Assembly (NCBI RefSeq): GCF_964213995.1
Contig: NC_135803.1
Location: 30,256,001 to 30,320,000, forward strand
Direction of reading: 5' to 3'
DNA from: Mustelus asterias
Taxonomy: Eukaryota
Length of the DNA stretch: 64,000 nt
Positions 886 to 42,436 of this stretch are shown piece after piece. The translations under genes and the position numbers were made by a program. How positions within the stretch are numbered: position 1 is the stretch's first letter; each line of letters opens with the position of its first letter. The notes below the pieces were generated by a model, which ran no database searches, was not told where the DNA came from, and saw only the letters and a list, made by a program, of their open reading frames with translations.

Positions 886-984
886 CGATAAGGTCCCCCA
901 TGCAAGGCTTCTAGAAAAAGTGAGAGGGTATGGGATCCAAGGGGCTGCTGCCCTGTGGATCCAGAACTGGCTTGCCCAAAGGAG

Positions 985-1087
985 TAAGAAGTTTAACAAC
1001 ACCAGGTTAAAGTCCAACAGGTTTATTTGGTAGCAAAAGCCACACAAGCTTTCGGAGCTCCAAGCCCCTTCTTCAGGTGAGTGGGAA
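985..1087 (-). mobile_element. Short PLE family A insert (pseudo-LTR) in CR1, TSD TTGCCCAAAGGAG
   Basis: Direct repeats at 972-984 and 1088-1100; sequence matches the ends of the GIY-YIG-encoding element at 13322-16566. Confidence 0.9.
1043..1079 (-). ncRNA. Minimal type I hammerhead ribozyme
   Basis: Minus strand reads CAC-CTGAAGA-A-GGGGC-TTGGA-GCTCC-GAAA-GC-TT-GTG: CUGANGA and GAAA cores, stem I CAC/GTG, stem II, palindromic AGCT stem III and a CUU cleavage triplet. Confidence 0.8.
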
Positions 1088-2130
1088 TTGCCCAAAGGAG
1101 GCAGAGAGTGTGTATAGGTGGGTCTTTTTCTAATTGGAGGTTGGTCACCAGTGGTGTGCCCCAGGGATCTGTTCTGGGACCCTTGCTCTTTGCCATTTTC
1201 ACAAATGACCTGGATGACGAAGTGGAGGGATGGATTGGTAAGTTTGCCAACGACACGAAGGTTGGTGGGGTTGTGGATAGTCTGGAGGGATGTCAGAAGT
1301 TACAGAGGGACATGGATAGGATGCAAGACTGGGCGGAGAAGTGGCAGATGGACTTCAACCCAGATAAATGCGTAGTGGTCCATTTTGGCAGGTCGAATGG
1401 GATGAAGGAGTACAATATAAAGGGAAAGACTCTTAGTACTGTAGAGGATCAGAAGGACCTTGGGGTCCGGGTCCATAGGACTCTAAGCAGGTGGAGGAGG
1501 TGGTTAAGAAGGCGTATGGTGTGCTAGCCTTTATCAATCGAGGGATTGAGTTTATGAGTCCGGGGATAATGATGCAGCTATACAAGACCCTCGTCAGACC
1601 CCACTTGGAGTACTGTGCTCAGTTCTGGTCGCCTCATTACAGGAAGGATGTGGAAAAGATTGAAAGGGTGCAGAGGAGATTTACAAGGATGTTGCCTGGA
1701 TTGAGTGGCATGCCTTATGAGGATAGGCTGAGGGAGCTTGGTCTTTTCTCTTTGGAGAGACGTAGGATGAGAGGAGACCTAATAGAGGTATATAAGATGT
1801 TGAGAGGCATAGATCGGGTGGACTCTCAGAGGCTTTTTCCCAGGGTGGAAATGGTTGCTACGAGAGGACACAGGTTTAAGGTGCTGGGGGGTAGGTACAG
1901 GGGAAATGTTAGGGGGAAGTTTTTCACACAGAGGGTGGTGGGCGAGTGGAATCGGCTGCCGTCAGTTGTGGTGGAGGCAAACTCAATAAGGTCTTTTAAG
2001 AGACTCCTGGATGAGTACATGGGACTTAATGGGATGGAGGGTTATAGGTAGGCCTAAAAGGTCGGGATATGTTCGGCACAACTTGTGGGGCCGAAGGGCC
2101 TGTTTTGTGCTGTAGTTTTCTATGTTTCTA

Positions 2131-4205
2131 AATGTGGCAAATTTTCAAGGAGAATTTGTCTGGAGCTCTGCACAGCAATGTTCCAATGAGACAGGGGAGT
2201 TATGGTAGGTTACAGGAACCATGGTGCACAAAAGCTGTAACGAATTTAGTCAAGAAGAAAAGAAAAGCCTACAAAAGGTTCAGGTAATGTTAGAAATCTG
2301 GAAGAGTATACGACTAGTAGGAAGGAACTTAAGAGGGAAATTAGAAGAGCAAGAAGGGGTCATGAGAAGGCCTTGGCAGACAGGATAAAGGAAAACCCCA
2401 AGGCATTCTACAAGTATGTTAAGAGCAAGAAGATAAGATGTGAAGGAGTAGGACCTATCAAATGTGACGGTGGGAAAGTCTGTATAGAACCGGTAGAAAT
2501 AGCAGAGGTACTCAATGAATACTTTACTTCAGTATTCACAGTGAAAAAGGATCTTGGTAGTTGCAGTGCAGACTTGCAGTGGACTGAGAAGATTGAGCAT
2601 GTGGACATTAGGAAAGAGAATGTGTTGGAGCTTTTGAAAAGCATCAAGTTAGATAAATCGCCGGGACCGGATGGGATGTACCCCAGGTTACTGTGGGAGG
2701 CGAGGGAAAAGATTTCTGAGCCTCTGGCGATGATCTTTGCGTCATCAATGGAGACGGGAGAGGTTCCGGAGGATTGGAGGATTGCGGATGTGGTTCCGTT
2801 ATTCAAGAAAGGGAGAAGAGATAGCCCGGGAAATTATAGACCAGTGAGTCTAACCTCAGTGGTTGGTAAGTTGAAGGAGAAGATCCCGAGAGGCAGGATT
2901 TATGAACATCTGGAGAGGAATAGTATGATCAGAAATAGCCAGCACGGATTTGTCCAAGGCAGATCATGCCTTACGAGCCTAACTGAATTTTTTGAAGATG
3001 TAACTAGACACATCGACGAGGGAAGAGCGGTAGATGTAGTTTATCTGGATTTCAGCAAGGCGTTTGATAAGGTGCCCCATGCAAGGCTTATTGAGAAAGT
3101 GAAGGGGCATGGGATACAAGGGGACATTGCCTTGTGGATTCAGAACTGGCTCGCCCACAGAAGGCAAAGTGTGGTTGTAGATGGGTCTTTTTCAGCATGG
3201 AGGTCGGTCACCAGTGGAGTGCCCCAGGGATCTGTTCTGGGACCCTTGTTCTTTGTGATTTTTATAAATGACCGAGATGAGGAAGTGGAAGGATGGGTTG
3301 GCAAGTTTGCTGATGACACAAAGGTTGGTGGTGTTGTGGATAGTGTAGAGGGATGTCAGCAGTTGCAACGAGACATCGATAAGATGCAAGACTGGGCGGA
3401 GAAATGGCAGATGGACTTCAACCCAAATAAGTGTGTGGTGGTTCATTTTGGCAGGTCGAATAGGATGAAAGAATATAATATTAAGGGTAAGACGCTTGGC
3501 AGTGTGGAAGATCAGAAGGATCTTGGGGTCCGGGTTCATAGGACGCTCAAAGCAGCGTCGCAGGTAGAGGCTGTGGTTAAGAAGGCGTATGGAATACTGG
3601 CCTTCATCAATAGAGGAATTGAGTTCAGAAATCGGGAGATAATGCTGCAGCTGTATAGGACCCTGGTCAGACCCCACCTGGAGTACTGTGCCCAGTTCTG
3701 GTCGCCTCATTACAGAAAGGATGTGGAAGCCATAGAAAGGGTGCAGAGGAGATTTACAAGGATGTTGCCTGGATTAGGTGGCATGCCTTATGAGGATAGG
3801 TTGAGAGAGCTAGGTCTATTCTCCTTGGAGAAGCGAAGGATGAGAGGTGACCTGATAGAGGTGTATAAGATGTTGAGAGGTATTGATAGAGTGGATTCTC
3901 AGAGGCTTTTACCCAGGGCTGAAATGTTTGCCACAAGAGCTCACAGGTTTAGGGTGCTGGGGAGTAGGTACAGAGGAGATGTTAGGGGTAGGTTTTTCAC
4001 TCAGAGGGTGGTGGGTGCGTGGAATCGGCTGCCGGTAATGGTGGTGGAGGCGGATTCGATAGGGTCTTTTAAGAGACTTTTGGATAAGTTCATGGAAGTT
4101 AGTAAGATAGAGGGTTATAGGTAAGCCTAGTAGGTAGGGACATGTTCGGCGCAACTTGTGGGCTGAAGGGCCTGTTTGTGCTGTAGCTTTTCTATGTTCT
4201 ATATT
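2131..4205 (+). mobile_element. Young 5'-truncated CR1 LINE with an uninterrupted 583-codon RT-region ORF (2373-4124)
   Basis: KSPGPDG, GNYRPVSLTS, QHGF, YLDFSKAFDKVPH, GVPQGSVLGP, FADD and RPHLEYC motifs; CR1 3' UTR and TTCTATG tail; no endonuclease domain. Confidence 0.97.
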
Positions 4206-4269
4206 TCTTGTAAATGGATAGGGAACAGACTTGAGTTGAACATTATCACGATCTGACCATTCTCTCTAA

Positions 4270-5470
4270 GGTCACAAAGTGGCAACGCAGGTGGAGAAGG
4301 TAGTCAAGAAGGTATGCGACATGCTTGCCTTGATCAGCCGGGGCAGTGAGTTTAAAAATTAGCAAGTCATGTTGCAGCTTTATAGAACCTTAGTTAGGAC
4401 GCACTTGGAACCTAGTGTTTAATTCTGGTCACCACACTACCAGAAAGATGTGGAGGTTTTGGAGAGGGTACAGAAAAGATTTACCAGGATGTTGCCTGAT
4501 ATGGAGGGCATTAGTTATGAGAAGAAGTTGGAGAAACTTGGTTTGTTCTCACTGGAATGATGGAGGTTGAGGGACGACCTGGTAGATCTTCTAGATTATG
4601 AGGGGCATGGACAGAGTGGATAGTCAGAAGCTTTTTCTGAGTCAATTACTAGGGGCCATAGGTTTAAGGTGCGAAGAGTAACGTTTAAAGGAGATGTACG
4701 AGGCAAGTGTTTTTACACAGGGTGGTGGGTGTCTGGAACTCGCTGCTGGGTGTGAAGTTGTACGAACTAAGTAAGGGCATGATGGGAAAATTGGTCAACT
4801 ATTTGTTACAATATAAAGAACGGCTGACCAAAGCTATTTCAAAATGCCAGACCCCTGTAAGAGTTAATAAGGCTGTAAGAGTAAATAAAACAAGATAAGG
4901 TCAGGGAGGAAGGAGTCACCGACCTCCTTCTGTTCCAAGGTCAAGATAAAGGTATGAATAATGAGACGAAGAGTTCTAGGAGGTCAGCAAGTTAAAACAT
5001 GATTAATGATATTGCTTATGATTCTATTACTAATCGAATTCCTGAATATGCTCTGGTCACGCAAACTGATAATGATTATGTATAAATACTGAACTGATTC
5101 TTTGTGTAATTGCAGACTTGAGGAGGAATTAGCAAGTTGTACCAACTGCTCTCTGAACTCAAGTTGTCAGCCAATAGTTCATGCAGTCTTTCGTAAATAA
5201 AGACAAAGTTATTTAGTCAAAACAAATTTTGTTGAGTCTTTCTATCACAGTCAAGGAGCAGGAAAGTTTCCACTTCAACATGGGGGAGGTAGTGGAAGCA
5301 GATACGATGGTGACTTATAAGAGGCGTCTTGACAAATACATGAATAGGATGGGAATGGAGGGATATGGTCCTTGGAAGGGTAGGGGGTTTTAGTTCAGTT
5401 GGGCAGCATGGTCGGTGCAGGCCTGGAGGGCCGAAGGGCCTGTTCCTGTGCTGTAATTTTCTTTGTTCTT
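4270..5470 (+). mobile_element. Degraded CR1 3' fragment split by a solo LTR
   Basis: CR1 RT C-terminal motifs at 4270-4750 continue at 5281-5470 with a 3' UTR ending TTCTTTGTTCTTTG. Confidence 0.85.
4751..5280 (+). mobile_element. Solo LTR (530 bp), 4-bp TSD TGGG
   Basis: TGTGAAGT...ACTTCAACA termini; TGGG at 4747-4750 and 5281-5284; TATAAATA at ~5081 and AATAAA at ~5196; the host CR1 is continuous across it. Confidence 0.85.
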
Positions 5471-5472
5471 TG

Positions 5473-5860
5473 AGGCTGAGGGAGAATCTGATAGAGGTAT
5501 ACAAAATTATAAGAGGCATGGAAAGGGTAGATCGTCAGAATTTTTCCTTATGACAGAAGTGTTTAAGACCTGAGGCATAGGTTGAAGGTGAGGAGTAAGT
5601 GGTTTAGAGGGGATCTGAGGAAAACAGTTTTCACCCAGAGGGTGGTGGAAATATGGAACGCGCTGCCTGAGAGGCTAATGGAGGCAGGTACTCTCACAAC
5701 ATTTAAGAAGCATCTGGACAAGCACTTAAATTGCCAAGACACAGTAGGTTATGGACCAAGTGCTGGTAAATGGGATGAGTATAGATTGGTATTTGATGGT
5801 CAGCATAGACATGATGGGCTGAAGGGCCTGCTTCTGTGCTGTATGACTCTATGGCTCTAA
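5473..5860 (+). mobile_element. Right part of the old CR1 that starts at position 1
   Basis: RLRENLIEVYKII and FTQRVVEIWNALP motifs, followed by a CR1 3' UTR with a CTCTATG tail. Confidence 0.8.
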
Positions 5861-7027
5861 GATAATGGTGGTTTTGTGATCGTAAAAATTTGTTTCAGAT
5901 TGTCTGAATTTTCATCCACCATGTTTGAATAGTGTTCAAATTGGAATTTCAGAGAACAAAGCTGTGCTTTACTTCTTATCATGAATGCTGTGATCTTCAT
6001 AAATTTTCTCAACTGGACTGGCCAAGTTGTTAATGCAAAAGCAGTTGGATGTAATGTGCCATTGTCACCCATTCCACGAGTAAATGTTTTTGAACCAGGG
6101 AGAATCCCAGTGGCTGGAACTGTTTTAAAGAGATCATCCTGCTTTCAGAATGTGATGCTTCACCTCCAAGTCCTTAGTGGAAATTACAGAATATTCAAAC
6201 TTTCACAAGTGTACATTGAGTGTATTTCGCTCGATAAAGTTTCAATCATGATTCTTTACAAATGATTGGATTCCAAAAAAACAGCCTAGTAGAAGAATTT
6301 GAGGGAGAGATTTGTTGAAGTGGTGCTGCAGAGACTTAACTTCATTCACAGGGGAGGTAGTACCACAGGATGCTTCCCACGCAGTCTGGGTGGCATTCTT
6401 CAGTGATACTAATATCATTAGTATCATTGAAGATACTAAAAAGCCATGCAGATATGAGTGCCTCAGGGAATCAACTTAAGTTTGCATTGGGCTAATTCTC
6501 CGCTTTTTAAACATTATACAGAGATCTGACTGGGTCCCTTTAGACAAGAAAGCACTTAAACAATTAAAAACAAGCCACTGATTGCAAGCTAAATTACTAT
6601 ACATAATATTTTCCATGTTGCCTTAATTTATTTGGGAAAAACATCTAATTAATTTAATGTTTTTAATCAGCTGTATTAACAGAGGCTCATGAATTACGCA
6701 GAACATACAGCACAGAAACAGGCCATTTGGCTCAGCTGCTGAATGCCAATGTTAATGCGCCACATAAGCCTTCTCCTAACTCTCTTCATCTAACCCAATC
6801 AGCATATTCTTCTATTTCTTTCTTCCTCATCTGTTTATCTTGTTTCCCCTCAAAGACATCTATGCTATTTATGATGTTTTCCGCATAAATTTTGATAATG
6901 AGTTCTACATTATAACCACCAGATAAAAAGGTTCTGCCTGTACTCATTTTTGGATTTAATAGTAATCGACTTGAATTAATGGCTCCTAATTTTGGGCTCA
7001 CCCACTGGCCAATTTGTAGAAATGTCT

Positions 7028-7223
7028 AGGTAAAAGTAAAATACTGCGGATGCTGGAATCTGAAACAAAAAACAGAAAATGCTGGAAAATCTCAGCAGGT
7101 CTGACCATATCTGTGGAGAGAGAATAGAGCCAACATTTTGAAGGGTCACCCAGACTCTCTCTCTATTCTCTCTCCACAGATGCTGCGAGACCTATTAAAA
7201 TCTTCCAGCATTTTTTGTTTTTG
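7028..7223. mobile_element. Palindromic PLE family B insert
   Basis: Arms ~7065-7135 and ~7160-7223 are inverted copies; flanked by TGT(A/G)GAAATGTCT at 7015-7027 and 7224-7236. Confidence 0.7.
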
Positions 7224-7905
7224 TGTGGAAATGTCTTCTCCACATCTACTGTATAAACTATTCATAATGTTCAAGATCACCACGGGATCATCCCTCAACA
7301 TACTCTTTTCTAGAGAAAATTCCAGCCTGTTCATTCTTTCCAATATTATATCCTCCTTGTAAAGCATTTTATGCCTTTCCAGGCCTCTACATGATTTCTG
7401 CAACAAAGAAATCAGACATGCACACAGTACTAAGTATGATCTAACCAGGTTTGTGCGCAACATCCCTGCTTTTCAATTTTAGCCCGTTAGAAATGGCCCC
7501 AGTACTTTGTTTGCTTTGCTTGTGGCTTCATTAATCTGGATCGCGACTTAAAGTGATTTGTATCGGTGTTCCTACATTCTTTGTTTCTGCATCTCATTTA
7601 GATTCTTATTATCTAAGAAGTAAGCGGCTTCCTTACTCTTCCTATTAAATTGCACCATCTCACCAATACTGAAATTCATTTGCCAATTACACATTAGGTC
7701 ATTTTTCAAGTTTGTTAATAACTTCTTCTATTTTGTCCGAGTCCTCCTCAGCATTAACTACAGACACTATAATTCCTCCCTCTCCCCAGTTTTATGGCAT
7801 CACAGATTTTGAAATTGTACGTCTTACTCTCAAGTTCAGAGTTCGAAAGGCATAATTCTGTAGTGAAGAACAATAAAATACATCAGATAATAAAAAGCTC
7901 AGAAC

Positions 7906-7987
7906 CTGTTGTTCAGCCTCCCTTTCTTTTTGTAAATTTTGTAACTGCTTTTTCAGAACTTTAATTTTTCTTCTGCCTTCCTCCTCC
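7906..7987 (-). CDS. IQCG: IQCG/DRC9 coding exon (EEEGRRKIKVLKKQLQNLQKEREAEQQ)
   Basis: AG/GT bounded, 82 nt, phase 2 to 0; resembles human IQCG EEKGRKQIISLQKQL; frame-compatible with the preceding exon. Confidence 0.88.
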
Positions 7988-8611
7988 CTGTGAAATGTGT
8001 AAAAATGAAAGTTTTTCAAATTGCATGAACAACAGGAATATATAGCAGCATTTTTTATTATAAATATGTAAAAATCCACAGTTACTCACTGATTAACAAA
8101 TGAAGATTTTGAAGACTAAATTTAACTTTATATTTATAGGAATTATAGTTGCAATACACAGAGTGCACAAGAGTGCCTTGGCAACAGCAGTGACTTACAG
8201 AACTTCTATCCAGTGGTGCTGAATTAGAATGCCAACTTCCACTGTTACTCCAACCAATTCCTTTCAAGGATCAATATTGCCAGTTGACGTACCATCATTA
8301 GATTGGGTAGTTCTCTGAGAAGAGGACATGTACAGAGCTCACTGCACATAAATTTAAACTACTATCAATTTATTTGTGGAGTAAAACTGGCAAAAGATAT
8401 AGGCCAGAATTCTCTGATCTTGCCTACAGCTGGGACTCTCCAGTCCTGCTGCTGTAAACAGAGATATCGCTGGGTGCCAAATTCTCCGTTCTCGCTGGCA
8501 GTAGGAGCGGGGTGTGTGAGAGTTCTGCACCTCCCACAACTGTCCAAATTTCTCAGATAAATGCAGCAGCAAGGAGTTGGGAAGCAATAGCAGCAGTGCA
8601 TCTAAAATGGG

Positions 8612-8778
8612 ATAGCCATGAGGTGGAGATGCCGGCGTTGGACTGGGGTAGGCACAGTAAGAAGTCTCACAACACCAGGTTAAAGTAACTCACCTGATGA
8701 AGGAGCAGCACTCCGAAAGCTCGTGCTACCAAATAAACCTGTTGGACTTTAACCTGGTGTTGTGAGATTTCTTACTGT
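8612..8778. mobile_element. Short PLE family A insert: tailed minus-strand end plus inverted partial pseudo-LTR
   Basis: TSD TCTAAAATGGG at 8601-8611 and 8779-8789; CACAGTAAG..ACAACACCAGGTTAAAGT is inverted against ACTTTAACCTGGTGTTGT..CTTACTGTG. Confidence 0.88.
8691..8725 (+). ncRNA. Minimal type I hammerhead ribozyme
   Basis: CAC-CTGATGA-A-GGAG-CAGCA-CTCC-GAAA-GC-TC-GTG; all core nucleotides intact, CUC triplet. Confidence 0.85.
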
Positions 8779-9225
8779 GTCTAAAATGGGGAAATTAGGA
8801 GATATGCCTTTGATGTAGACCAGTGTTTATTAATAGAACTCTGTATTCTGTTCCTCATCCCTCACTTGACACGATTTACTTATTTACTCTTTATTTAATT
8901 GAAAGGAATGAGGTAACGTGAGTGAACTACGGCTGAGCAGCACTTGAACCAGCATACATTCTATAAGGTAATCACCACAAGTAAAGGCTTATGGCACTGT
9001 CTGTCCCCAGACAATCTACGTGGTCTTGTAATATTTTAAACAAATTATTCTCTCAGAGTATTGAACTAAGTACTGGGAGGAATTTGGCTTAGTGGCTGTT
9101 CCAGTACATACTGAGTGTTTCCTATTGATCAGCTAGGTATGGGAGAGTATAATTTATTCAGATAGATACTCAGTGTGTTGCCCATTCAAGTAAATACTAA
9201 AAGTACCATGGATGTCAAAGCTAAC

Positions 9226-9354
9226 CTGATAATAACATTTTGCATGTTGATTTTTTTCTTTTTCTCCCATTCGATAACGTTCATTAGAAACATAAATGTT
9301 CCAGAATAATTTAGCTCCTGCAAGGTGTTATTGATCACGTCCAAAGCAAATTGC
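9226..9354 (-). CDS. IQCG: IQCG coding exon (QFALDVINNTLQELNYSGTFMFLMNVIEWEKKKKINMQNVII)
   Basis: AG/GT bounded, 129 nt, phase 2 to 2; resembles human QFFSDVIADTIKELQDSATY. Confidence 0.9.
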
Positions 9355-12120: not shown

Positions 12121-12204
12121 TATATATTTGATAATGGGCAATAAAAGGTTATACCTTAAAATTATCTGTGACAAGTTCACCTGATAGCAAATACTTACAT
12201 TTAG

Positions 12205-12552: not shown

Positions 12553-12659
12553 TTGATCTAATCTATTGAAATGTCTGGTACAGGACTTGGATATTTGCTC
12601 AGACCGAAAGGTTTACATTAAAATGCATTGGCTCTTAAAGGTTATTCTTTGGACCTTAC

Positions 12660-12904: not shown

Positions 12905-13484
12905 CTGGACAAGAAACAAATGTGAGATTTTCCTTTGGTGAGATATAACTGCTGTTATGCTCAGGTATGCTAAGAACTTGACAATTTTAAAAAACATCAT
13001 GGACTATTCTCCCAGCTCACTGCGCTAATTTTGTAGCACAGCAGACTGGGAGACTCAAGCGGAGGCCGTTTAGCGGGTTCCCCGCTGGGCGCCACGGCCT
13101 GCGTGCGTCTCCGGCAGCCGGATTTTTGGCGCCGTCGGCTCCGCGTCAGAAATCGGCACGGAGCTGCATAAATGATTTGGTCATTTTGAATGTATTTTAA
13201 ATATCATTACTGGGCCCGGGACTGGAGTCCAAACAGACATCACGACTTGCAGGTCAGCAACAACATCAAAACCTTGTCTGTACTGACATACGGTGCTGTA
13301 ATCACTACTTAAACCTATGTGATGTGGAGATGCTGGCGTTGGACTGGGGTAAACACAGTAAGGAGTCGAACAACACCAGGTTAAAGTCCAACAGGTTTAT
13401 TTGGTAGCAAACGCCATTAGCTTTCGGAGCGCTGCTCCTTCGTCAGGTGAGTGGGAGATCTGCTCATAAACAGCAAACAGGGCA

Positions 13485-14133
13485 TGTAAAGTGGAAAATA
13501 CAAGGGAGCACACTTTAAAATGGCAATACAAGAAAGCACACTTTAAAATGGCTGCCTGGCACATAAAGGGTTAACTGGGAAAGCCAAAAGAGCAGACACA
13601 GGCTCCTGCTGTTCAGAAAAACCTAACAAGACAAGCCACTTCCAAAGTACAGACAGTGACTCATAGCAAACAAACACCTCAGGAAGCCAAGCCAAGGGTC
13701 AAAACATCTTTTTAAGATAAGGAAACCCCAAAACAAAGAGCTTAGATTAACGTTAAAGGAAGGCGGGAAATATGAATGCGAGGGAACCGATTAGCACCTG
13801 AACGAGATGAAACTAGCCATTGATCGATACAGACATAAGGAGATGTACCCATTCATAAAATGCTAAATGTCTATACCTGTTTGTACTCTTGTAAACATGA
13901 GGAAATGTACCCATTCATAAAATGTTAAATACTTGTACTCACTTAAACAATGTGATAATGTTCGAATCACCGGTATACCCATTGTGTAAAGGATATAAAA
14001 ATGAACCGCTCCCAACATACTATTGAGAGAAGGTTTGCTACAGACCATGTGCCTTGTCTCCACGGAGCTCCGTTTAATAAATCGTATTTTCTGAATCTCG
14101 AAGTCTGACTACTAGTGGATTTTTCCCACAACA
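13485..14133 (+). mobile_element. Solo LTR (649 bp), 5-bp TSD GGGCA, inserted in the PLE left arm
   Basis: TG...CA ends; GGGCA at 13480-13484 and 14134-14138; TATAAAA at 13994 and AATAAA at 14076; the empty site is visible in the other arm (~16430-16445). Confidence 0.9.
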
Positions 14134-16469
14134 GGGCATATAAAGACACAAACTCAATTTACTGAATAATGAATGGAATGCGAGTCTTTACAGCTAATCA
14201 AGTCTTAAAGGTACAGACAATGTGAGTGGAGAGAGCATTAGCCCAGGTTAAAGAGATGTGTATTGTCTCCAGACAGGACAGCCAGTGAGACTCTGCAAGT
14301 CCAGGCAAGTTGTGGGGGTTACAGATAGTGTGACATGAACTCAAGATCCCGGTTGAGGCCGTCCTCATGTGTGCGGAACCTGGCTATCAGTCTCTGCTCA
14401 GCGACTCTGCGCTGTCATGTGTCGTGAAGGCCGCCTTGGAGAATGCTTACCCGAATATCAGAGGCCGAATGCCTGTGACCGCTGAAGTGCTCCCCAACAG
14501 GAAGAGAACAGTCTTGCCTGGTGATTGTCGAGCGGTGTTCATTCATCCGTTGTCGTAGCGTCTGCATGGTTACCCCAATGTACCATGCATCGGGACATCC
14601 TTTCCTGCAGCGTATCAGTTAGACAACGTTGGCCGAGTTGCAAGAGTATGTACCGTGTACCTGGTGGATGGTGTTCTCACGTGAGATGATGGCATACGTG
14701 TCGATGATCCGGCATGTCTTGCAGAGGTTGTGTGGCAGGGTTGTGTGGTGTAGTGGTCACTGTTCTCCTGAAGGCTGGGTAGTTTGCTGCGGACAGTGGT
14801 CTGTTTGAGGTTGTGCGGTTGTTTGAAGGCAAGAAGTGGGGGTGTGGGGATGGCCTTGGCGAGATGTTCGTCTTCATCAATGACATGTTGAAGGCTCCGG
14901 AAGAGATGTCGTAGCTTCTCCGCTCCGGGTAAGTACTGGACGACGAAGGGTACTCTGTCCACCGTGTCCCGTGTTTGTCTTCTGAGGAGGTCAGTGCGGT
15001 TTTCCACTGTGGCGCGTCGGAACTGTCGATCGATGAGTCGAGCGCCATATCCTGTTCTTATGAGGGCATCTTTCAGCATCTGGAGGTGTCTGTTGCGATC
15101 CTCCTCATCCGAGCAGATCCTGTGTATACGGAGGGCTTGGTTGCATTCTTGGAAACAAGCATCTCCATTAAGGACGGTCACCTCAGCACCTCACTGTACC
15201 GCAAGCCCACGGATAACCTCACGATGCTCCACTTCTCCAGCTTCCAACCTAAACACGTTAAAGAAGCCATCCCCTATGGACAAGCCCTCCGTATACACAG
15301 GATCTGCTCGGATGAGGAGGATCGCAACAGACACCTCCAGACGCTGAAAGATGCTCTCATAAGAACAGGATATGGCGCTCGACTCATCGATCGGCTGTTC
15401 CGACGCGCCACAGCGAAAAACCGCACCGACCTCCTCAGAAGACAAACACGGGACACGGTGGACAGAGTACCCTTCGTCGTCCAGTACTTCCCCGGAGCAG
15501 AGAAGCTACGACATCTCCTCCGGAGCCTTCAACATGTCATTGATGAAGACGAACATCTCGCCAAGGCCATCCCCACACCCCCACTTCTTGCCTTCAAACA
15601 ACCACACAACCTCAAACAGACCACTGTCCGCAACAAACTACCCAGCCTTCAGGAGAACAGTGACCACGACACCACACAACCCTGCCACAGCAACCGCTGC
15701 AAGACGTGTCAGATCATCGACATGTACGCCATCATCTCACGTGAGAACACCATCCACCAGGTACACGGTACATACTCTTGCAACTCGGCCAACATTGTCT
15801 ACCTGATACGCTGCAGGAAAGGATGTCCCGAGGCATGGTACATTGGGGAAACCATGCAGACGCTACGACAACGGATGAATGAACACTGCTCGACAATCAC
15901 CAGACAAGACTGTTCTCTTCCTGTTGGAGAGCACTTCAGCGGTCACGGGCATTCACCCTCTGATCTCCGGGTACCATGCCTCGGGCCATCCTTTCCTGCA
16001 GCGTATCAGGTAGACAATGTTGGCCGAGTTGCAAGAGTATGTACCGTGTACCTGGTGGATGGTGTTCTCACGTGAGATGATGGCATACATGTCGATGATC
16101 TGGCACGTCTTGCAGCGGTTGCTGTGGCAGGGTTCTCCAAGGCGGCCTTCACGACACATGACAGCGCAGAGTCGCTGAGCAGAGACTGATAGCCAGGTTC
16201 CGCACACATGAGGACGGCCTCAACCGGGATCTTGGGTTCATGTCACACTATCTGTAACCCCCATGACTTGCAAAGTCTCACTGGCTGTCCTGTCTGGAGA
16301 CAATACACATCTCTTTAACCTGTGCCAATGCTCTCTCCACTCACATTGTCTGTACCTTAAAGACTTGATTAGCTGTAAAGACTCGCATTCCAATCATTAT
16401 TCATTATTCTGTAAATTGAGTTTGTGTCTTTATATGCCCTGTTTGCTGTTTATGAGCAGATCTCCCACT

Positions 16470-16505
16470 CACCTGACGAAGGAGCAGCGCTCCGAAAGCT
16501 AATGG
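16470..16505 (+). ncRNA. Hammerhead ribozyme motif in the PLE pseudo-LTR (mirror copy ~13414-13449 on - strand)
   Basis: CAC-CTGACGA-A-GGAGC-AGC-GCTCC-GAAA-GC-TA-ATG; core intact but the first stem I pair is a C-A mismatch. Confidence 0.7.
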
Positions 16506-16652
16506 CGTTTGCTACCAAATAAACCTGTTGGACTTTAACCTGGTGTTGTTCGACTCCTTACTGTGTAAACGTATGTGGACAGTTTACATTGATCATCCGA
16601 TCTATAATCCTAAGTAAATTTTAAACATAAAAGCTCTGAGGGGAAATCCAAC

Positions 16653-27983: not shown

Positions 27984-27989
27984 AATAAA
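27984..27989 (+). terminator. RPL35A: RPL35A polyadenylation signal
   Basis: AATAAA 24 nt after the stop, with a GT-rich element downstream (~28010-28030). Confidence 0.8.
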
Positions 27990-32895: not shown

Positions 32896-34289
32896 TTCTA
32901 GGTTCAAACATTTTGATAGAGTAGATGCAGAAGTTGGGGGGGGGGGGGGGGGGTGGGGTGGAGGGGAGAGCAGAAATAAAAGCTGTCAATACAAGATAGT
33001 CACCAAGAAATCCAAACGCGAGTTCAGAAGAAATTCACACGGAGAGTGGCGTGGAAAGTGGAACTTGCTACCACCAGGGGTAGTTGTTACAGACAGCTTG
33101 GATAGGTGTACAGTGGAGATGAGAAAAGCCATTGGACGAGAGAAGTGGGACAAGGCTTGAGCAGAATATAAATGCTGGCGTTTCTGTGCTGTAATATCTA
33201 TGTAAGTATGTAAATCTCTGCACCCTCTTCACTGCCTTGACATCTTTTAAAAAATGTGATCCACAGAATTGGACACACTGTTCCAGCTCTCTTTTGTATC
33301 TGGAGATGTTTTCTAAGTTCAGAGTACTATAAAAGTGCAAGTTATATGGTATTGAATACAGATAATTTGAGCCTGACAGGTTTGATAATCAGAAGCATTG
33401 CAGTAATATGGTCAGAAGCAGTGTTTCATCTGCCACTTTTAAGGAGAAGACTTTTACAGATTGGAATCGAGTGATCCATACAAAATTTCCTCTAAAAACT
33501 TTATTTTGCCAACCTGGGTCTTTGCCAGCATATGGCTGGGAAAACACAGACCATCTTGACCCAATGCCAATTGTAGACAAAGACTTCTTTCTACCACTAT
33601 ATGATGGTACGTGTGAACAGTGAAGTGCTAAGATTTAAAAGCTATGAATATTTATCTGCAGTTTGCCTTATATAAGCATGACACACCACTTTAATTTGAA
33701 ATTGAAAATGTAATCTTCATGTTAGGTTAAAAATAGTTCTATGCAATTAGTACTATTATATGCTTTCAATTTGGGGTACTAAGCTCTTAAAACGAGAACC
33801 TCCTGAAATGGAAGTAGAAGTTATTGTATCACATTCATGAACATATATAATTGTTTTATCTTCGCCAGCTATTTCATTTTCTTTCTAAGACTTGTTGTTT
33901 TCTTATTGGTGGCCATACTTAGGCACTAAGCTCTGGAATTCCCTCTCAACCGCTACCTTAGTTCAGCCACTTTTGACGTGACCTGAATCAAATAATCTTC
34001 GCTTCCATAGGCACACAGAAACAAGTACATTCACACACACTTATAACCCGTTTGGTCATAGTGTATTGTTAAGCCTTCTTATGATTTCTGTGGACTACAT
34101 TATTGATATATTTACATGAAATTGTTGAAAGAAGCGCATGTTAGACCACAGTAAGAATGTGATATTTTAGGTTTTAGGTTCATACTTTCTTTTGCTTTTG
34201 CTCAGTTGTACAGGCCAAATTCAAGAAGTTTTTTTGCGTCTTTGTTAAAAGTAAATATATTTGAGTAGCTATTTGGATGGGACAAAGTA

Positions 34290-34575
34290 CCACAAGTGTC
34301 ACAAGTAGCCAAACATTAACACTGCAATGAAGTTACTGTGAAAATTCCCAAGTCGCCACACTCCAGCGCCTGTTCGGATACACCGAGAGAGAATTTAGAA
34401 TGGCTAATGCACCTAACCAACACGTCTTTCAGACTGTGGGAGGAAACTGGAGCACCCAGAGGAAATCCTCGCAGACACAGGGAGAACGTGCAGACTCCGC
34501 ACGGGCAGTGACTGAAGCCGGGAATCGCACCTGGATCCCTGGCAGTGAGGCAGCAGTGCTAACCACTGTGCCATT
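34290..34575 (-). mobile_element. V-SINE, alternative tail
   Basis: Same family as 42886-43160, 48325-48615, 52433-52730, 55945-56250, 57645-57912 and 62185-62400. Confidence 0.8.
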
Positions 34576-37500
34576 GTGCAAATTAATGTCCTGATGCAAA
34601 ACAGATATGAGATGTTGTACCATTGGAACATTCCTTGTAATTCCATCAGAGCAAACTGGGGGGAAAAAGACAAACTGATTCTAATCGGAAATAAAACAAT
34701 TTTCAGTTAAAGGTAGATTTTAAACCTGTCATGATGAATATATCTAACCTGTTGAGGGAACTGCCTGCATATTTGAAGATGACATGATCTGTGCTTGTGT
34801 CAGATTCTTATTGGAGAAGAATAAAATATGAATCAGCTGTGATGGGGATGTATTTGGCAGATGACATTGAAATTAGTTTACTGCTAGTTGATAGGGTTAA
34901 TAATACAAGAAATAGAAGAGGAGTAGGCCATATGACCCACTGAATCTTCTCCGCCATTCAATATTATCGTGGATGATTGGGCTTCAACTCCACTTTCCCA
35001 CCGTGCTCTCCATATCCCTTGATTCCCGGAGACCAAAAATCTCTCTCTCTGTTTGAAATTTAAAAATGGAGCATCCACAATCCTCCGGGGTTAGACCATT
35101 CCGAAGATTCAGAACCCTTTGAAGTAATTTCATTTCATCTGAGTCCTACATGATTGTCCCCTTATCCTGAGACTGTGCTCCCATGTTTAAGATTCCCAGC
35201 CAGCAGAAACAATCTCTCAGCATCTATTCCACCAAGCCCCTTCACAATCTTGTTCATTTCAATGAGATCACCTCTCAAAATGCCAAATGTGAAGTACGTA
35301 ATCAAGCCTGAACTGATATGAATAGACTTGTTCCTAATGACCATTATGTAGTGCTTCTGAATGAATTCATTTCATTCTAAAAATCTTAATTGCTTTTTCA
35401 GAGAAAGAAGATTAAAACAGTTTGTCCATGTACCATCTGTTTTGAAGAAGCAGTGGCAACCAAAATCAAGAATTTGTTCTTTAATGCTCTCACTATTGTT
35501 TTTCAATCTTTGCCTTGTGATTGGCAGGAGCTCAAGTCTGTAGACCAGACTCCTTGAAATTGGCCCCTGCTACACAGCTTTACAAGGGCATAGTCTTACA
35601 CCCAGATATTGCAGTCAACAGAGAAGTAGAGATATTTGCTACTGACTCGATGAAGGAGCACCACCCTACCTTGGCTGGAAGCTACAGTGGGGACTTGCTC
35701 TGTTGGTTGCAGCATGGATCCAATGGCCATGTTAGTGGAGACTAGCAGCCAGTTCCCTGTGCAGCCATTTTAATGTCATCATCTGAACACGCACTCCTTG
35801 AGGCCTCAGCTCAAAGACAGGTAAGTGTTTCTTAATTCTTTGATTTTTTTTTATTGGATGCAGTTTTAATTACGGCTCGCCCCCATTCCCCATCCACCCC
35901 CCTTCTGGCACGCCCACAGGTGAGGAACTGGGGTTTGGTAGGGAAGAGAAGCTAGAGAGCAATGGAGGTCACATTAGTGTCACAAGGAGGCTTACATTAA
36001 CACTGCAATGAACATCCCCTAGGTTTGGGGGAGGGGGAGAGGGGCACCCAGGGGTGCTTTAAGGGCTATTGCACCTGTTAGCAACAGCCCTAAAAAAAAG
36101 TAAAGGGAAGTGTAATTGCTGGACAATCCGCCCAAGACTTTGAATAACAGGTCGCAGTGGAACCATCAGCCTGGGATCCTCTGGACCCCACACAGGTGAA
36201 CTGCAACTTGTAGGTTTGAGAGTAAGTAGCATCCCCTTCCCATGACCCATATATCTGTTTTTTTAAAAAACTGTAAAGCTGATCAAAGCCAAGGATACGG
36301 ACTACCCTGGACCAGTGTTCCATGGGGGGTTGGGTGGGGGTGGTGCAATTTTGGTCCCACACTAAATGCCATCCCAATTCTTATTCCCATCCCTGTACAT
36401 ATGGACATATTCATCCTGCAGTGCCAGCATCAACTGCCAACGAGAAAATGAAGGTTTGAACTTTGTAAAGTTAATGGTGAATACAGTACACTAGAAAGTG
36501 CCTAATAGACAGAGGAGATGCTGTCCCTCAAGCTTACACTCAGATTGCCTGCAACAGTGTTGCATTCCAAATGAAGAGTGATTTGAAATGGTAAGTGACT
36601 GGCAGCTCATGGCTTGAACACATAACCAAGTAAAGTGCAGTTATGAAGAGGAAAAGACCCTCACTGGTCCATCTAGCCCACCCCCAAAACAGCAATACCT
36701 TATATACTCCCCAACTGAAAACATGTGATATCCTGGAAGAATTGGAAAAGCAGATTATAGACCTAAAGTAAACAGAGAAAATAAAATCTGGAAATTCCTT
36801 TCTGACTCCCTAGAACAATTAAAAATAGTCCAGGAAGTCATTCTGTTCCTGATTTTTATACAACACTTATCTCTTTGTTTATGCCCCAGCCAGGGACAGG
36901 TTCAGCTCTCACTAGAAGAAATTCAGTGGATCAGCAGCTGCTTAATCTGCATTTGGCTTCCCCAGTGTAGAGTAGACCACACTGCAAGCGGAGAATACAG
37001 CATATAGGGGTTGAAGGAAGTACATATAGATTGCTGTTTCACACAGGAGGAGTGTTTGGGCCTCCCAATGGTGTTGTAGGGGTAGACAAGTGAGCAGGTG
37101 CTGCATCTGCTATGCTTGCCAGGGGAAGGACAGCAGGTAGTAGAGGTTTTGGAAGAGTGAACCAGGGAGTCACAGAGTGAATGTTCCCTTCAGAATGGTG
37201 AGTGCGCAGGGGACGATGTGTGGATAGCACTTGGAGGGAAAGTATTAAATGACATATGCTATCATTTAAAAAAATATTAGTTCCTGGAATGTGGACTTTC
37301 TGCAAGGACTGTGCACTCATCACTCCTGTTATGGACAGATACATCTGTCACAGGCAGATTGGAGGAAATCAAGTAGTTTTTTTTCCTTTGTTTGTTTGAG
37401 TGGTATTTGGTAAATTTGCCATTTTGCTGCCACCCTCACTTCCCTATCTAAAATAAATATATCCTTACTAATCATGAACTCCAGAGCCAATCCTCATCTG

Positions 37501-38416
37501 AACTTCCATGCAAAATATGCCACAATTACTGCAAACTTGAAATAAAAAGAGAAGACTGTTTCATAGAAAAGTCAGCAGATATCTGAAATCAAATCTCTGC
37601 TCTCTATTGCTGCATTTTAATGACTCTGATCTGATCTGATGCCTGATATATTACCACCAAGTACTGGTCTAAGCACCTACTTCTCCGAGATCAGGAGAAG
37701 ACATTTGACAGGCTGCTCTGGACCTCAGAGGATGCCTGATTCAGAAACTTACCCAAGCTGGAAATAAAATCACCACATCTCTTTGGTGGATAGGATTGAC
37801 TCGAATGCTTGCATACTGGAATAGATTTTGCCATAAACCAGCTGCTGGCCGGTTTACTTTAATACTGGCTCGCTCCCCTGAATTTATTACGAGGACTCAA
37901 ACATGAAGCTCCAGCAATTTTGCAGATTCTCTGTAGTTGTGATACTTTCCTTGTAGTTGCTGCACCACCTGATTTTCTAATCCATCTTGAAGAGGGATTT
38001 ATTTTTTAACTGTCTCCGTTTTATTGGAAAATCTTGGAAATTGGATTATTCCAGGGACTCTCTCATTGAGTTGGAAACCTCCCAGTTGCCATTGTTCAGC
38101 TTTTTCAGTGCATGGCTGAAAAGGAGACAAGCCCTTACTGCCAAGGTAACCAGAGTCAAGCTGGAAGTAGAATGGATGGATCTCCTGGAGATATTAGTCA
38201 CCACGATGAACTGGTGTTATGTCCACTCTGATATCAGTGCTATCCAGGAACTGGGCTATCAATGACATCAAAGATGCGGATTAGCGTGGAGTGTTTCTGT
38301 CTAATCTCGTATTTGGATAGAGCTAGATCCTAAAATCTCTCTGTGGATCTCTGACCACCTCCTGTTATTCTGAGCCTGCCTGAAAGCCTGGGTGACTATT
38401 GGGATAAGTCCATTTC

Positions 38417-38775
38417 GGGGGAGGCCATGGCCTAGTGGTATTATTGCTAGACTATTAATCCAGAAAATCGGCTAATGTTCTGGGGACCCAGGTTTGAATC
38501 CCGCCATGGCAGATGGTGGAATTTGAATTCAATCAAAATAAATCTGGAATTTAGAATCTACTGATGACCATGAAACCATTGTCGATTGTCAGAAAAACCC
38601 ATCTGGTTCCCTAACGTCCTTTCGGGAAGGAAATCTGCCAACCTCACCTGGTCTGGCCTACTTGTGACTCCAGAGCCACAGCAATGTGGTTGACTCTTAA
38701 TTGCCCTCAGGCAACTAAGGATGGGCAATAAATGCTGGCCCAGCCAGTGAAGCCCATGTCCCAAAAATGAATAAA
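38417..38775 (+). mobile_element. Full-length SINE family 2
   Basis: TGGCCTAGTGG A box, GGTTTGAATCC B box and an L2-type tail. Confidence 0.8.
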
Positions 38776-39494
38776 GAATTCAGCATCCATCAGTTTGACT
38801 GAGGTCCTCCGCAGCAGTGAAGTGGGCATGACCTGCTTTATTGACTATAAAAATCAGACCTCATTTAACACTACACCAGCGTGTATTGTTGGTGTCAAGA
38901 ATCATATGCCATAAACAGCAAAGAAGCTGCTATTTAGAATCCACAAAAGTGATTCCTTCTCCCTAATCTCGGCCTCTCAATAAACTGTGTCCTTTTTCTC
39001 TCCTGTACTCGTTTAGTTTCCTTTTGAAAACATTGAAACTAGAAGCAGGAGTAGGCCATTCGGCCCTTCGAACCTGCTCTGCCATTCATTTTGATTGTGG
39101 CTGATCATCAAATTCAAAATCCGCCTTCGCCCATAGCCTTTGATGTCTTTAGCCCTAAGAGCTATATCTAATTTCTTCTTGGAAATCAGACAACATTTTG
39201 ACCTCAACTACTTTCTGTGGTAGTGAATTCCACACATTCACCAACCTCTGGGTGAAGAAACTTTTCCTCACCTCTAAGCTGTTTACCTCAACCAAGAGTT
39301 TCTAGGTTGCATGTGAAAAGGTGTCTTCCTCCCGGAGAGGGGTTGCAGTTGTATGAATTCTCATGGTGTTGGGTTCACAGCCAGTGTTTATAGTCTATCA
39401 CTCAGAGAGCACGTTGGTTCCCTTGTTCTGCCCACACTCGGTGTGTGTGAGAAACGTTGAGTGTCTTTCCCACTGATTGTGAAATCACAGAGTG

Positions 39495-39560
39495 GTGACA
39501 CCGCCCCTTTTGGTGTTGGAGTATCAGATTGGTCAATGCCCCGCAGATTGGCATTCGAAG
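39495..39560 (+). promoter_or_regulatory. Putative promoter of the C2orf72-like gene
   Basis: GC box CCGCCCC at ~39501 and two inverted CCAAT boxes (ATTGG at ~39528 and ~39547), 60-110 nt upstream of the ATG. Confidence 0.5.
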
Positions 39561-39611
39561 AGGCGGAGCTCCCTGAGGTTGAGTGGCTTTTGCTCAAGGG
39601 GCTGAGTGAGG

Positions 39612-40287
39612 ATGAAGGAAGAGAGGATGGAGGGAGGGAGAGCAGAGCTGGACCCAGACTGGACCGACAGGGAATTCCAACAACTGGTCAAAGCCATAGG
39701 AGGCAGAGAGAATATCTTCCTGATCGGGGAAGTGTGCGAGAGCCGGGACCTGATGTTCCAGTTTGTTAATGACTTGTTTCCATGTCCTGGGAAAGTTCAC
39801 AGTAAGCTCTCGGACACGGGCAGCGGGCAGCAAGTGATGGAGCCCCAGTGCAAGGACTCTGAGCCCCACAGCGAGCGGGAGTTTGAGAGTTTGTTGGAGC
39901 CTCCCGGCAAGGTGACCCACACGGTGAACGGCACCAAGGAGCAGAGGCGGATCAAAGCCCGGCTCATTCTCTTCCTCTTCCACCAGGATTTCATCTGTAA
40001 CAAGCAGAACGACCTCGTGATCCGGGAGCTGCTGAAGGACGTTCGGCACAGGTCCAGCTCCTGGAAGGACCTACCCGCTCTCATTGGGGTGGTCCACGCT
40101 GACACTGTCACCGGGGAGCTCGGCGTGGCTGTCCGCCTCATAGAGTATTACCTGCGGGCAGTCTTCCACCGGCACCCCGGGGAGTGCGTGCAGGCTCTCC
40201 CCTTCATAGCCAACCAGCCAGACTCTATGACACAGCTGAAAAAGACCATTTGTGTTGTCCTCCGAGCTGTTTCGAGCGTCACAACAG
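39612..40287 (+). CDS. C2orf72: C2orf72-like (DUF4630-type) protein, exon 1
   Basis: FQQLVKAIGGRENIFLIGE, LILFL, RELLKDVR, ALIGVV and LRAVF..HPGECVQA parallel human C2orf72 motifs (FQALVEAAGGRGQVLLVGE, REMLRDVR, ALVGVL, LRAVF); CAG|GTATCT donor in phase 1. Confidence 0.8.
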
Positions 40288-40687
40288 GTATCTCCCACCT
40301 AAGGAAATACATTATAGGATGCCTGCACTTTGGAAAGGAATTGTAATGTATCTTTGTTTTTGGTGCATATCCCCCCCTCAACCATTTGGTGCAGTTTATT
40401 AATTAAGTGCATTGTCTTGCTAGGGATGGCAATCTAAGCCACTTATCCACCTTTTTTATGGAATATTTAACAGATGCACACGTGTTCAATAGGAGGCAGC
40501 AGAAAAAAAACTCGTAATCCCAACCCTTTTTGTTTGACTGCCCTCTTCTGAGATTTATGGCCCTGGCACGCATGCCAGAATTTGCTCTAGGTGAATTAAT
40601 AGACAGGACTTGTCCGTAGCTAAAACAGAAAATGCTGGAAAATCTCAGCAGGTCTGACAGCATCTGTGGGGAGAGAATAGAGCCAAC

Positions 40688-42436
40688 AAAAAACAGTGCA
40701 GCACAGGAAACAGGCCCTTTGGCCCTCCAAGCCTGTGCTGCTCATTGGTCCAACTAGACCATTCATTTGTATCTCTCCATTCCCAGACTGCTCATGTGAC
40801 TATCCAGGAAAGTCTTAAACGATGCCAGCGTGTCTGCCTCCACCACCCTACTTGGCAGCGCATTCCAGGCCCTCACCACTCTGTGTAAAAAAACGGCCCT
40901 CTGATATCTGAGTTATACCTCGCCCCTCTCACCTTGAGCCCGTGACCCCTCGTGATCGTCACCTCCAACCTGGGAAAAAGCTTCCCACTGTTCACCCTAT
41001 CTCTGCCCTTCATAATTTTGTACACCTCTATTAGGTCTCACCTCATTCTCCGTCTTTCCAGGGAGAACGAGCCCAGTTTACCCAATCTCTCCTCCATAGC
41101 TAAGACCCTCCATACCAGGCAAACCTGGTAAACCTTCTCTGCACTCTCTCTAAAGCCTCCACGTCCTTCTGGTAGTGCGGCGACCAGAACTGGACGCAGC
41201 ATTCCAAATGTGGCCTAACCAGCGTTCTATACAGCTGCAACATCAGACTCCAGCTTTTATACTCTATACCTCGTCCTATAAAGGGAAGCATACCATATGC
41301 CTTCTTCACCACCTTCTTCACCTGTGCTGCCACCTTCAAGGATTTGTGGACTTGCACACCTAGGTCCCTCTGTGTTTCTATACTCTTGATGGCTCTGCCA
41401 TTTATTGTATAACTCCTCCCTACATTAGTTCTTCCAAAATGCATCACTTCGCATTTATCTGGATTAAATTCCATCTGCCATTTCTCCGCCCAATTTTCCA
41501 GCCTATCTATATCCTGCTGTATTGTCCGACAATGTTCATCGCTATCCGCAAGTCCAGCCATCTTCGTGTCATCTGCAAACTTGCTGATAACACCAGTTAC
41601 ACCTTCTTCCAAATCATTTATATATATCACAAATAGCAGAGGTCCCAGTACAGAGCCCTGCGCCCTGCGGAACACCACTGGTCACAGACCTCCAGCCGGA
41701 AAAAGACCCTTCGACTGCTACCCTCTGTCTCATGTGGCCAACACAGTAAGGGGCTTAAGGCTCCGAAATTTTGTGTGGTTTTTGCTACCAAATAAACCTG
41801 TTGGACTTTAACCTGGTGTTGTTAAACGTCTTACTGTGTTTACCCCAGTCCAACGCCAGCATCTCCACATCCTGTGGCCAAGCAGCCAGTTTTCTACCCA
41901 TCTAGCCACCTGTCCTTGTATCCCATGAGCCTTAACCTTCTTAACCAACCTGCCATGAGGGACTTTGTCAAATGCCTTACTGAAATCCATATAGACGACG
42001 TCCACGGCCCTTCCTTCATCAACCGTTTTTGTCACTTCCTCAAAAAACTCCACCAAATTTGTAAGGCACGACCTCCCTCTTACAAAACCATGCTGTCTGT
42101 CACTAAGGAGATTGTTCCGTTCTAAATGCGCATACATCCTGTCTCTAAGAATCCTCTCCAACAACTTCCCTACCACGGACGTCAAGCTCACTGGCCTATA
42201 ATTACCCGGGTTATCCCTGCTACCCTTCTTAAATAACGGTACCACATTTGCTATCCTCCAATCCTCAGGGACCTCACCTGTGTCCAATGAAGAGACAAAG
42301 ATTTCCGTCAGAGGCCCAGCAATTACATCTCTTGTCTCCCTGAGCAGTCTAGGATAGATGCCATCAGGCCCTGGGGATTTGTCAGTTTTAATGTTACCTA
42401 AAAAACCTAACATTTCCTCCCTTGTAATGGAGATTT
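40688..42436 (-). mobile_element. 5'-truncated CR1 LINE (RT region)
   Basis: ORFs 41808-42509 and 41100-41678 carry KSPGPDG, NYRPVSLTS, KAFDKVPH, FADD and RPHLE motifs; 3' UTR at ~40690-40760. Confidence 0.95.
41742..41869 (+). mobile_element. Short PLE family A insert in CR1, TSD TC(A/C)TGTGGCCAA
   Basis: Direct repeats at 41730-41741 and 41870-41881; truncated hammerhead (stem II + GAAA), pseudo-LTR and 3' tail; ~9-bp inverted piece at the 5' end. Confidence 0.9.

Follow-up and report, generated by a model that had tools for sequence, protein, structure and literature searches.

A bipartite palindromic target motif and a recurrent CR1 insertion site of a Penelope family in Mustelus asterias

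A 64,000-nucleotide (nt) stretch of the Mustelus asterias genome (NC_135803.1, positions 30,256,001 to 30,320,000; hereafter the window) contains two copies of CR1, a long interspersed nuclear element (LINE), that are interrupted at the same point of the reverse transcriptase (RT) gene by inserts that all belong to a single Penelope-like element (PLE) family. The Penelope family described here uses a target that is both bipartite and palindromic and leaves a two-primer footprint, and a codon pattern conserved in CR1 is its largest sink. The target motif, rather than recognition of CR1, probably explains this hotspot, with a dimeric protein carrying RT and GIY-YIG endonuclease (EN) domains that would nick both strands at TG-N16/17-CA and prime complementary DNA (cDNA) from both ends.

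Insertions at the CR1 NWL codons and the target motif

The second open reading frame (ORF2) of the host LINE matches RVT_1 (E=1.6e-31) and carries DFSKAFD, WIxNWL and FADD motifs, which we take to be those of CR1; positions in it are given on the 624-amino-acid (aa) frame at 2250..4121 of the window, where the struck Asn-Trp-Leu (NWL) site is aa 303. Junctions were counted genome-wide on the tail side of the inserts at the site pattern AAYTGGCT-N7-AGRA. A total of 4,242 tail junctions of the family follow this pattern, against 100,784 such sites, which amounts to 4.2% counted on one side only and to a rate ~1,700-fold over uniform, and in 99 of 100 listed matches the junction is exactly at the NWL site and not in the next ~45 nt. 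An unselected sample of 382 copies of the element's 26-nt core, in which target site duplications (TSDs) were found first and then validated by element content, gave 261 copies with a validated TSD and 168 distinct insertions, 4 of them in the window. Among the 164 outside it, 16 are at NWL (confidence interval 6-15%; 9/81 and 7/83 in sub-samples), although the genome-wide share is probably nearer an estimated 5-7%. CR1 ORF2, which makes up at least 17% of the tile DNA, received 50 of the 164 (1-2 of them doubtful) and 114 lie outside it; one CR1 protein used as a yardstick began with element read-through, leaving 1-2 of 52 CR1 assignments in doubt.

All common subfamilies of the element insert at NWL, and many CR1 subfamilies are struck, with differing inserts. 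Across 30 occupied NWL loci, TSD interiors and tail starts vary, as do the lengths of the inserts (35-1,371 nt in the 24 cases that gave a length), the host flanks have a median similarity of 0.65, and near-identical hosts hold different inserts; the only identical pair, L056 and L057, is one duplicated event. The original prediction, made from the window, had proposed a single-nucleotide hotspot in CR1, and the site is indeed nucleotide-sharp, genome-wide and made up of independent events, but it is neither the only site of the family nor specific to CR1. Junctions are not spread evenly along CR1, and no single ancestral chimeric CR1 lies behind them, as flanks and inserts differ. The antisense bias that the same prediction implied is ruled out: 10 of 18 NWL inserts have inverted ends and so both orientations, and the remaining eight, which are one-armed, split 4:4. 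Along contig C1, the occupied NWL sites among the matches listed are dense in two stretches, the first 4.5 Mb and 41-52 Mb, and few of them lie at 5-19 Mb.

The motif itself was read from the 116 of the 168 insertions that lie outside CR1, which also served as the training set for a half-site model. TG-N16-CA is present in 54 of these and TG-N17-CA in 23 (77 in total), compared with 0-6 at each other spacing from 10 to 23. TSD length has its mode at 12, and the flanking signal is symmetric, i.e., palindromic, around the 12-13 nt duplication. When the TSD is exactly 12 nt (n = 32), TG is at -4/-3 in 26, CA at +3/+4 in 30, and both in 25. The half-site consensus is C-Y-C-T-G-K-C-T, with A disfavoured at -7/-6, while the interior of the TSD is nearly without information. 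For sites picked on the left half and the tail alone, CA was at +3/+4 or +4/+5 in all 18 with a far end found, of 29 (hand tally). Hidden copies of the CR1 NWL site were also sought among the 116 training sites, and none resembles it (nhmmer E>3).

In CR1, the Trp (TGG) and Gln (CAG) codons of NWL-x-x-R-x-Q place TG and CA 16 nt apart. The half-site model, trained only on non-CR1 insertions, puts 15% of insertions at NWL in 1.2 Mb of tiles (bootstrap 8-24%) and 29% in CR1 ORF2, compared with 30% observed. It ranks the CR1 positions aa 303 > 170 > 453, and the same three are recurrent in the sample, with 16, 4-5 and 3 insertions, respectively. Counts at three further sites were obtained after the model prediction. 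FADD, a conserved but motif-free control within CR1, has 17 junctions against ~21 predicted by the model and ~99 under a uniform rate. A different LINE with a motif site, presumably Rex1/Babar-like and at most a weak match to CR1, has 28 junctions (17 independent) per 1,656 empty sites, all at one base, which is 420-690-fold and 0.4-0.6 of the model prediction (0.5 at NWL), with a per-site rate comparable to that at NWL. The third, TGEV (CR1 ORF2 aa ~170; occupied for example in L015, L069 and L221, and empty at ~2745-2770 of the window), has 1,103 junctions per 10,667 sites.

TGEV is hotter per copy than NWL, with 9/32 copies occupied compared with 6/85 at NWL in the same CR1 subfamily (p = 0.005). 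Occupancy follows the bases at -1/T1, being 9/32 in TGEV copies with CT and 1/52 in those with AC (first 43 Mb of C1, two lists cross-read; p = 0.0006), a contrast to which subfamily age may contribute. NWL is therefore the commonest hotspot, but neither the sole nor the hottest one. A dependence on CR1 beyond the general motif was not seen: the non-CR1 model predicts the NWL share and the other LINE has the same ratio of observed to predicted. The excess at TGEV lies beyond the model. Both overhangs of TGEV-CT have 3-4 nt of similarity to the start zones of reverse transcription, a possible explanation of that excess. Full-motif sites outside CR1 are ~4% occupied, equal to CR1, but the figure comes from hand tallies (~30/100 listed, 3/18, 3,983 empty) with a range of ~1-9%, too wide to carry weight.

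Several further cases of recurrence were seen. Single CR1 copies in L015 and L069 carry two and three independent inserts (TGEV, KAFD, NWL), and in the unselected sample CR1 was hit three times at aa ~453 (L223, L064, L246) and twice at one site in the N-terminal part of ORF2 (L250, L207). Independent pairs occupy equal positions of two non-CR1 repeats (L103:5018/L224:7641 and L202:4910/L204:4909), one of which we take to be tRNA-SINE-like. At the other-LINE site, nine copies of one insertion lie ~50-150 kb apart on C8 (L265-L272, 4.5-5.1 Mb), probably a large tandem segmental duplication.

Junction anatomy, a proposed mechanism and its alternatives

The core is antisense to the element ORF; it therefore represents the cDNA strand, and the tail junction marks the start of reverse transcription. 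Tail starts are bimodal, at 6-20 and 43-54. A tail is present at both ends in 116 of the 168 insertions, and all 93 with both ends called have one long and one short tail. Of the 52 one-tailed inserts, 18 show a mini second arm, which belongs to the opposite class in 16 cases and to the same class in 2. In 120 of 202 junctions with a unique frame, the tail-side end of the TSD is exactly 2 nt 5′ of CA; it is 1-4 nt longer in 66, which is chance extension, and short in 16. At the start point, template and final host base agree in 55/68 long and 47/70 short junctions (23 and 26 when permuted), and a smaller excess continues out to -6; the host 3′ end matches the template start over 1-2 nt. One junction form that is common after ...AGAA has its tail start at 11, where the preceding base of the template is G and not A; slippage or a non-templated base may be responsible.

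These junctions can be accommodated by a mechanism in which each subunit of a dimeric RT/GIY-YIG protein would bind one (C)TG half-site, the two half-sites being inverted, and each strand would be nicked 2 nt 5′ of CA to produce 3′ overhangs of 12-13 nt. The first of these would prime at the long-tail start, 45-54 nt before the core, and the other at the short-tail start, 8-17 nt before it, each 3′ end sliding to a pairing base of the template. The two cDNAs would then join to give an insert with inverted ends, or one of them would abort. In CR1, the Trp and Gln codons would supply TG and CA at the right distance in ~100,000 copies and so create the hotspot, drawing some 5-10% of the family's insertions, with disruption of CR1 as a by-product. 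Since CR1 NWL is the commonest good match to the motif, the hotspot is likely explained without recognition of CR1. Double priming would fit the behaviour of PAc (Poseidon from Anolis), which cuts and extends both strands from two start sites bounding the tail and is predicted to be a dimer (PMC11167929), and also the earlier observation of a tail on one of the inverted pseudo-long terminal repeats (pLTRs); an origin of inverted ends by self-priming has been discussed as an alternative (PMC3846280).

Several results weigh against this explanation. The dimer, the nick positions and the double priming rest on junction anatomy and not on biochemistry, and PAc is described as preferring ATT and as having start sites non-homologous to the cut DNA (PMC11167929). 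At NWL the ratio of observed to predicted is 0.5, the model over-predicting ~2-fold, and at TGEV-CT, with ~28% occupied (842 predicted), the additive model is ~14-fold too low. A centred TG-N16/17-CA is missing from 50 of 168 validated insertions, some of which reflect mutation or wrong TSD calls. A site of NWL quality is rare in codon-resampled 3.3-kb sequences, 300 per frame, for most of five natural CR1 frames (P = 0, 0, 0.02, 0.017 and 0.72), and compared with non-CR1 DNA the lower-quartile, median and upper-quartile copies give P = 0.95, 0.24 and 0.02. The sample is mostly from contig C1 (first 3 Mb, up to 49 Mb), with half of it chosen by one element subfamily, and leaving out the 121 of 382 cores that had no validated TSD would lower the count of sites that are old or in microsatellites.

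A rather unlikely alternative is evolved targeting, in which the same nuclease has had its half-site preference selected to fit the conserved RT sites of CR1, where inserts would find a safe haven; the family would then be a parasite, with loose specificity, of the dominant LINE. In its fuller form, which we hold to be equally doubtful, the dimeric GIY-YIG enzyme of a vertebrate Penelope element would read its palindromic site like a homing endonuclease and prime symmetrically and doubly from one RNA, tuned by selection to the protein-constrained CR1 RT codons as a parasite of the dominant LINE that has knocked out about a third of the long copies in one subfamily. So good a site being rare in four of the five resampled CR1 frames (P 0-0.02) would be expected of selection, as would the quality of the match, the right half of NWL having the top or second base at 8/8 half-site positions and the left half at 6/8. 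Two separate CR1 sites, NWL and TGEV, are very hot, every common element subfamily strikes NWL, and there is precedent for transposable elements (TEs) that target other TEs in Tx1 and Tx1-Mar (PMC4494074). However, the left half in CR1 has A-A at -7/-6, where A is disfavoured, most of the unselected insertions (114 of 164) lie outside CR1 ORF2, the share in CR1 (30%) equals that of the model (29%), and the ratio of observed to predicted is alike for NWL and the other LINE. A chance match at NWL is moreover acceptable because the five CR1 frames share ancestry and count as one trial, and because several abundant repeats, some with hot sites of their own, were available to be matched.

A motif-directed nuclease of the element is also to be preferred to breaks of other origin, whether from the endonuclease of CR1, a host nuclease of transposase type or fragility of the DNA structure, which the Penelope RT would only fill. 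A bipartite palindrome with a fixed stagger does resemble the footprint of a DNA transposase or recombinase, and ~30% of sites are without the motif. This origin is nevertheless very improbable, as the element encodes its own GIY-YIG domain, the nick at the tail junction has a fixed distance from CA (120/202 exact and the 66 extended by chance), and the strict pairing of long with short tails needs coordinated priming. Descent of the same-site copies from a single chimeric CR1 master, from a few such masters or by segmental duplication, of which the L056/L057 pair and the nine C8 copies are real examples, is refuted by the differences in TSD interior, tail start, insert length and host flanks among the 30 NWL loci.

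About 4-6% of CR1 copies are broken at NWL, and one subfamily is broken at ~28% + 7% at two sites, up to about a third of its long copies. The idea that this PLE inactivates the dominant LINE holds only as to the disruption of copies as a by-product. Most struck hosts are probably dead truncated copies, but source CR1s may be struck at similar rates, and the insertion load may matter to them.

On how Penelope elements choose and resolve their targets, published work gives loose biases, towards microsatellites or AT-rich DNA, and second-strand events are unvalidated in the single in vitro system. In the ~100,000 natural products that the present family provides, the bipartite site is defined, the stagger is fixed at 12-13 nt and long plus short priming is strict, and the junctions give base-level predictions for nick positions and two-primer integration. 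The family also illustrates how copying a protein-constrained codon pattern 100,000 times can turn a modest sequence preference into a strong hotspot of one TE within another. For gene insertion, an RT/nuclease that is sequence-selective and able to write on both strands may be an interesting tool.

Family identity and comparison with known elements

The 26-nt core is present in 176,877 exact copies in the 3.68-Gb genome. A near full-length copy inserted within CR1 (L095:4914-8234, 3.3 kb, with a perfect TSD) has an open frame of 915 aa (5107-7851) that matches RVT_1 (E=4e-10) and contains a C-X4-C-xx-C linker before EN and a GIY-YIG/CCHH domain recognised by eye. Its intactness suggests recent activity of the family, and its first codons fall within the tail in other natural copies. 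The VVY..YIG core can be read in the L095 sequence, and two Cys and two His are present in the EN of P0001; a Pfam search of the element frame gave no GIY-YIG match. The family has the hallmarks of EN-containing PLEs, namely a single ORF with RT and C-terminal GIY-YIG, a pLTR, inverted ends, a tail and, by descriptor, a hammerhead ribozyme (HHR). A CX2-5CxxC linker between RT and EN together with CCHH in EN defines Neptune, and the linker is common to Nematis (PMC8557442), so that the predicted architecture is of Neptune/Nematis type and the family appears Neptune-like.

The hammerhead assignment rests on a minimal-HHR descriptor, matched in 257 of 382 cores, and cleavage is predicted. Stem I has a compensatory change from CAC/GTG to CAT/ATG between element subfamilies. 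Rfam gave no hammerhead at the gathering score in the window, nor at E<=10 in 16200-16650, and single-strand folding gave no improvement over shuffles (z 0.16 and -0.50). Like the minimal hammerheads of metazoan PLEs (PMC4209133), it has a type I core, an unpaired base before stem II and a palindromic loop 3, but by descriptor its stem I is only 3 bp.

A full-text literature search found no report of a TG-N16/17-CA target or of a CR1 hotspot for a PLE, most subscription papers and Repbase being outside its coverage. With the Neptune clade the family shares one ORF with RT, CX2-5CxxC linker and C-terminal GIY-YIG with CCHH, hammerhead-bearing pLTRs, inverted ends and a short TSD (PMC8557442, PMC3846280); a tail of 30-40 nt, carried by one pLTR of the inverted pair, is also common to both (PMC3846280). 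Neptune, Naiad and Chlamys have a reported bias towards microsatellites (PMC8557442), whereas the site here is palindromic and bipartite, with its stagger fixed at 12-13 nt. The microsatellite bias typical of Neptune was not found, the site logo being TG-N16/17-CA in complex DNA, although calling based on TSDs would under-count microsatellite insertions. Rotifer PLEs have reported TSDs of 8-10 bp, with no motif given, compared with 12-13 nt and a motif here.

PAc in vitro shares the cutting and extension of both strands, the predicted dimer and the two RT starts bounding the tail; it belongs to the Poseidon clade and prefers AT-rich ATT (PMC11167929), in contrast to the TG..CA motif seen here, where each strand has one start and the microhomology is 1-2 nt. 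Nucleotide-precise insertion into a multicopy sequence is shared with the EN-minus PLE-X elements of spike mosses, whose target is 28S rDNA and for which no endonuclease is identified, whereas the present family has GIY-YIG (PMC8557442). Accumulation of a retrotransposon at one position of another mobile element is known from Tx1 and Tx1-Mar/SINEU (PMC4494074). Tx1 and Tx1-Mar are LINE-type and have up to 90% of copies in the target, compared with ~10% at the top site and 30% in CR1 ORF2 here, where the motif is used elsewhere too; TE targeting has been defined by more than 20% of flanks in one sequence type (PMC4494074).

Insertion of the family into its own tail was also considered and rejected, the best site in the element being only 312-fold and outside the tail. 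Such self-targeting has reportedly been described for the D. virilis Penelope. Tx1-type elements, for their part, use an APE endonuclease.

Inserts and other features of the window

The window contains 6 copies of the core, compared with 0 in 100 shuffles, and these represent 5 insertions, because a single 3,245-nt element contributes the cores at 13370 and 16524, one from each end. The coordinates are collected in Table 1. Insert 1 is flanked by TTGCCCAAAGGA at 972-983 and 1088-1099, and position 984, a G, fits either the TSD or the first base of the element. In insert 2, CATGA replaces CAGGA in the second TSD copy, a single mismatch, and the hammerhead is without its CUGAnGA strand. The 3,245-nt element has an 11-nt TSD with one mismatch.

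The original prediction had the positions of inserts 1 and 2 right, with TSDs located at both, and was also correct that both are antisense to CR1, because the element ORF reads opposite to the core motif, that the two hosts have diverged (score of 0.50 on aligning 150-nt flanks), and that empty sites exist in other CR1 copies (~152-175 and ~3141-3165). It had described insert 1 as carrying a complete hammerhead but no tail; the minimal core is complete (1043-1079, minus strand), but a short tail is present. For insert 2, the truncated hammerhead stands, while the reported 5′ inversion (41750-41742) is the reverse complement of the short-tail start, i.e., a 9-nt second arm. The other three inserts had been placed at unrelated sites, yet NNCA is present at the tail-side nick of each, and the complete TG-N16-CA in one of them.

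Table 1 Penelope inserts, CR1 hosts and target sites in the window
Feature	Position	Strand	Basis
Empty NWL site, older CR1 copy	152..175	+	sequence
Host CR1 copy A, 5′-truncated RT region	881..2126	+	blastn; tblastn
TG, left half-site (Trp codon of CR1 NWL), insert 1 target	968..969	+	sequence; motif
Left copy of 12-nt TSD, insert 1; putative top-strand nick after 983	972..983	+	sequence
Insert 1, one-armed Penelope pLTR fragment, short tail start, 5′-truncated; base 984 ambiguous with TSD	984..1087	-	sequence
Minimal type-I hammerhead core (predicted): 3-bp stem I, CUGAnGA, extra A, 6-bp stem II, GAAA, palindromic loop 3	1043..1079	-	descriptor match; no Rfam hit
Right copy of 12-nt TSD, insert 1	1088..1099	+	sequence
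CA, right half-site (Gln codon of R-Q-R), insert 1 target	1102..1103	+	sequence
Open CR1 ORF2 stretch, 624 aa, RVT_1; empty NWL site ~3141-3165	2250..4121	+	sequence, profile match
Family insert outside CR1: short tail and inverted long-tail arm, 11-nt observed TSD, NNCA at nick	8612..8779	.	blastn; sequence
Single insertion of 3,245 nt with a tail at either end, the long one on the left and the short one on the right; RT-thumb/Cys-linker/GIY-YIG remnant	13322..16566	.	
Host CR1 copy B, diverged from copy A	40801..42383	-	blastn; flank alignment
TSD of insert 2, downstream copy in CR1 sense, one mismatch	41730..41741	-	
Insert 2: long-tail arm, truncated hammerhead, 9-nt inverted short-tail arm at 41742-41750	41742..41869	+	
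12-nt TSD of insert 2, upstream copy in CR1 sense; 3 extra host bases before TSD	41870..41881	-	
49-nt family insert outside CR1, target = full TG-N16-CA	59315..59363	-	blastn; sequence

Long stop-free frames on several strands were seen in L104:1210-4582, L096:1-2360, L108:8011-10000 and L091:2331-3970 and are probably tandem repeats. In the window (1074-1083, plus strand) and in other copies, the antisense strand of the pLTR has a consensus 5′ splice donor, CAG/GTGAGT, that overlaps the hammerhead and could affect host transcripts.

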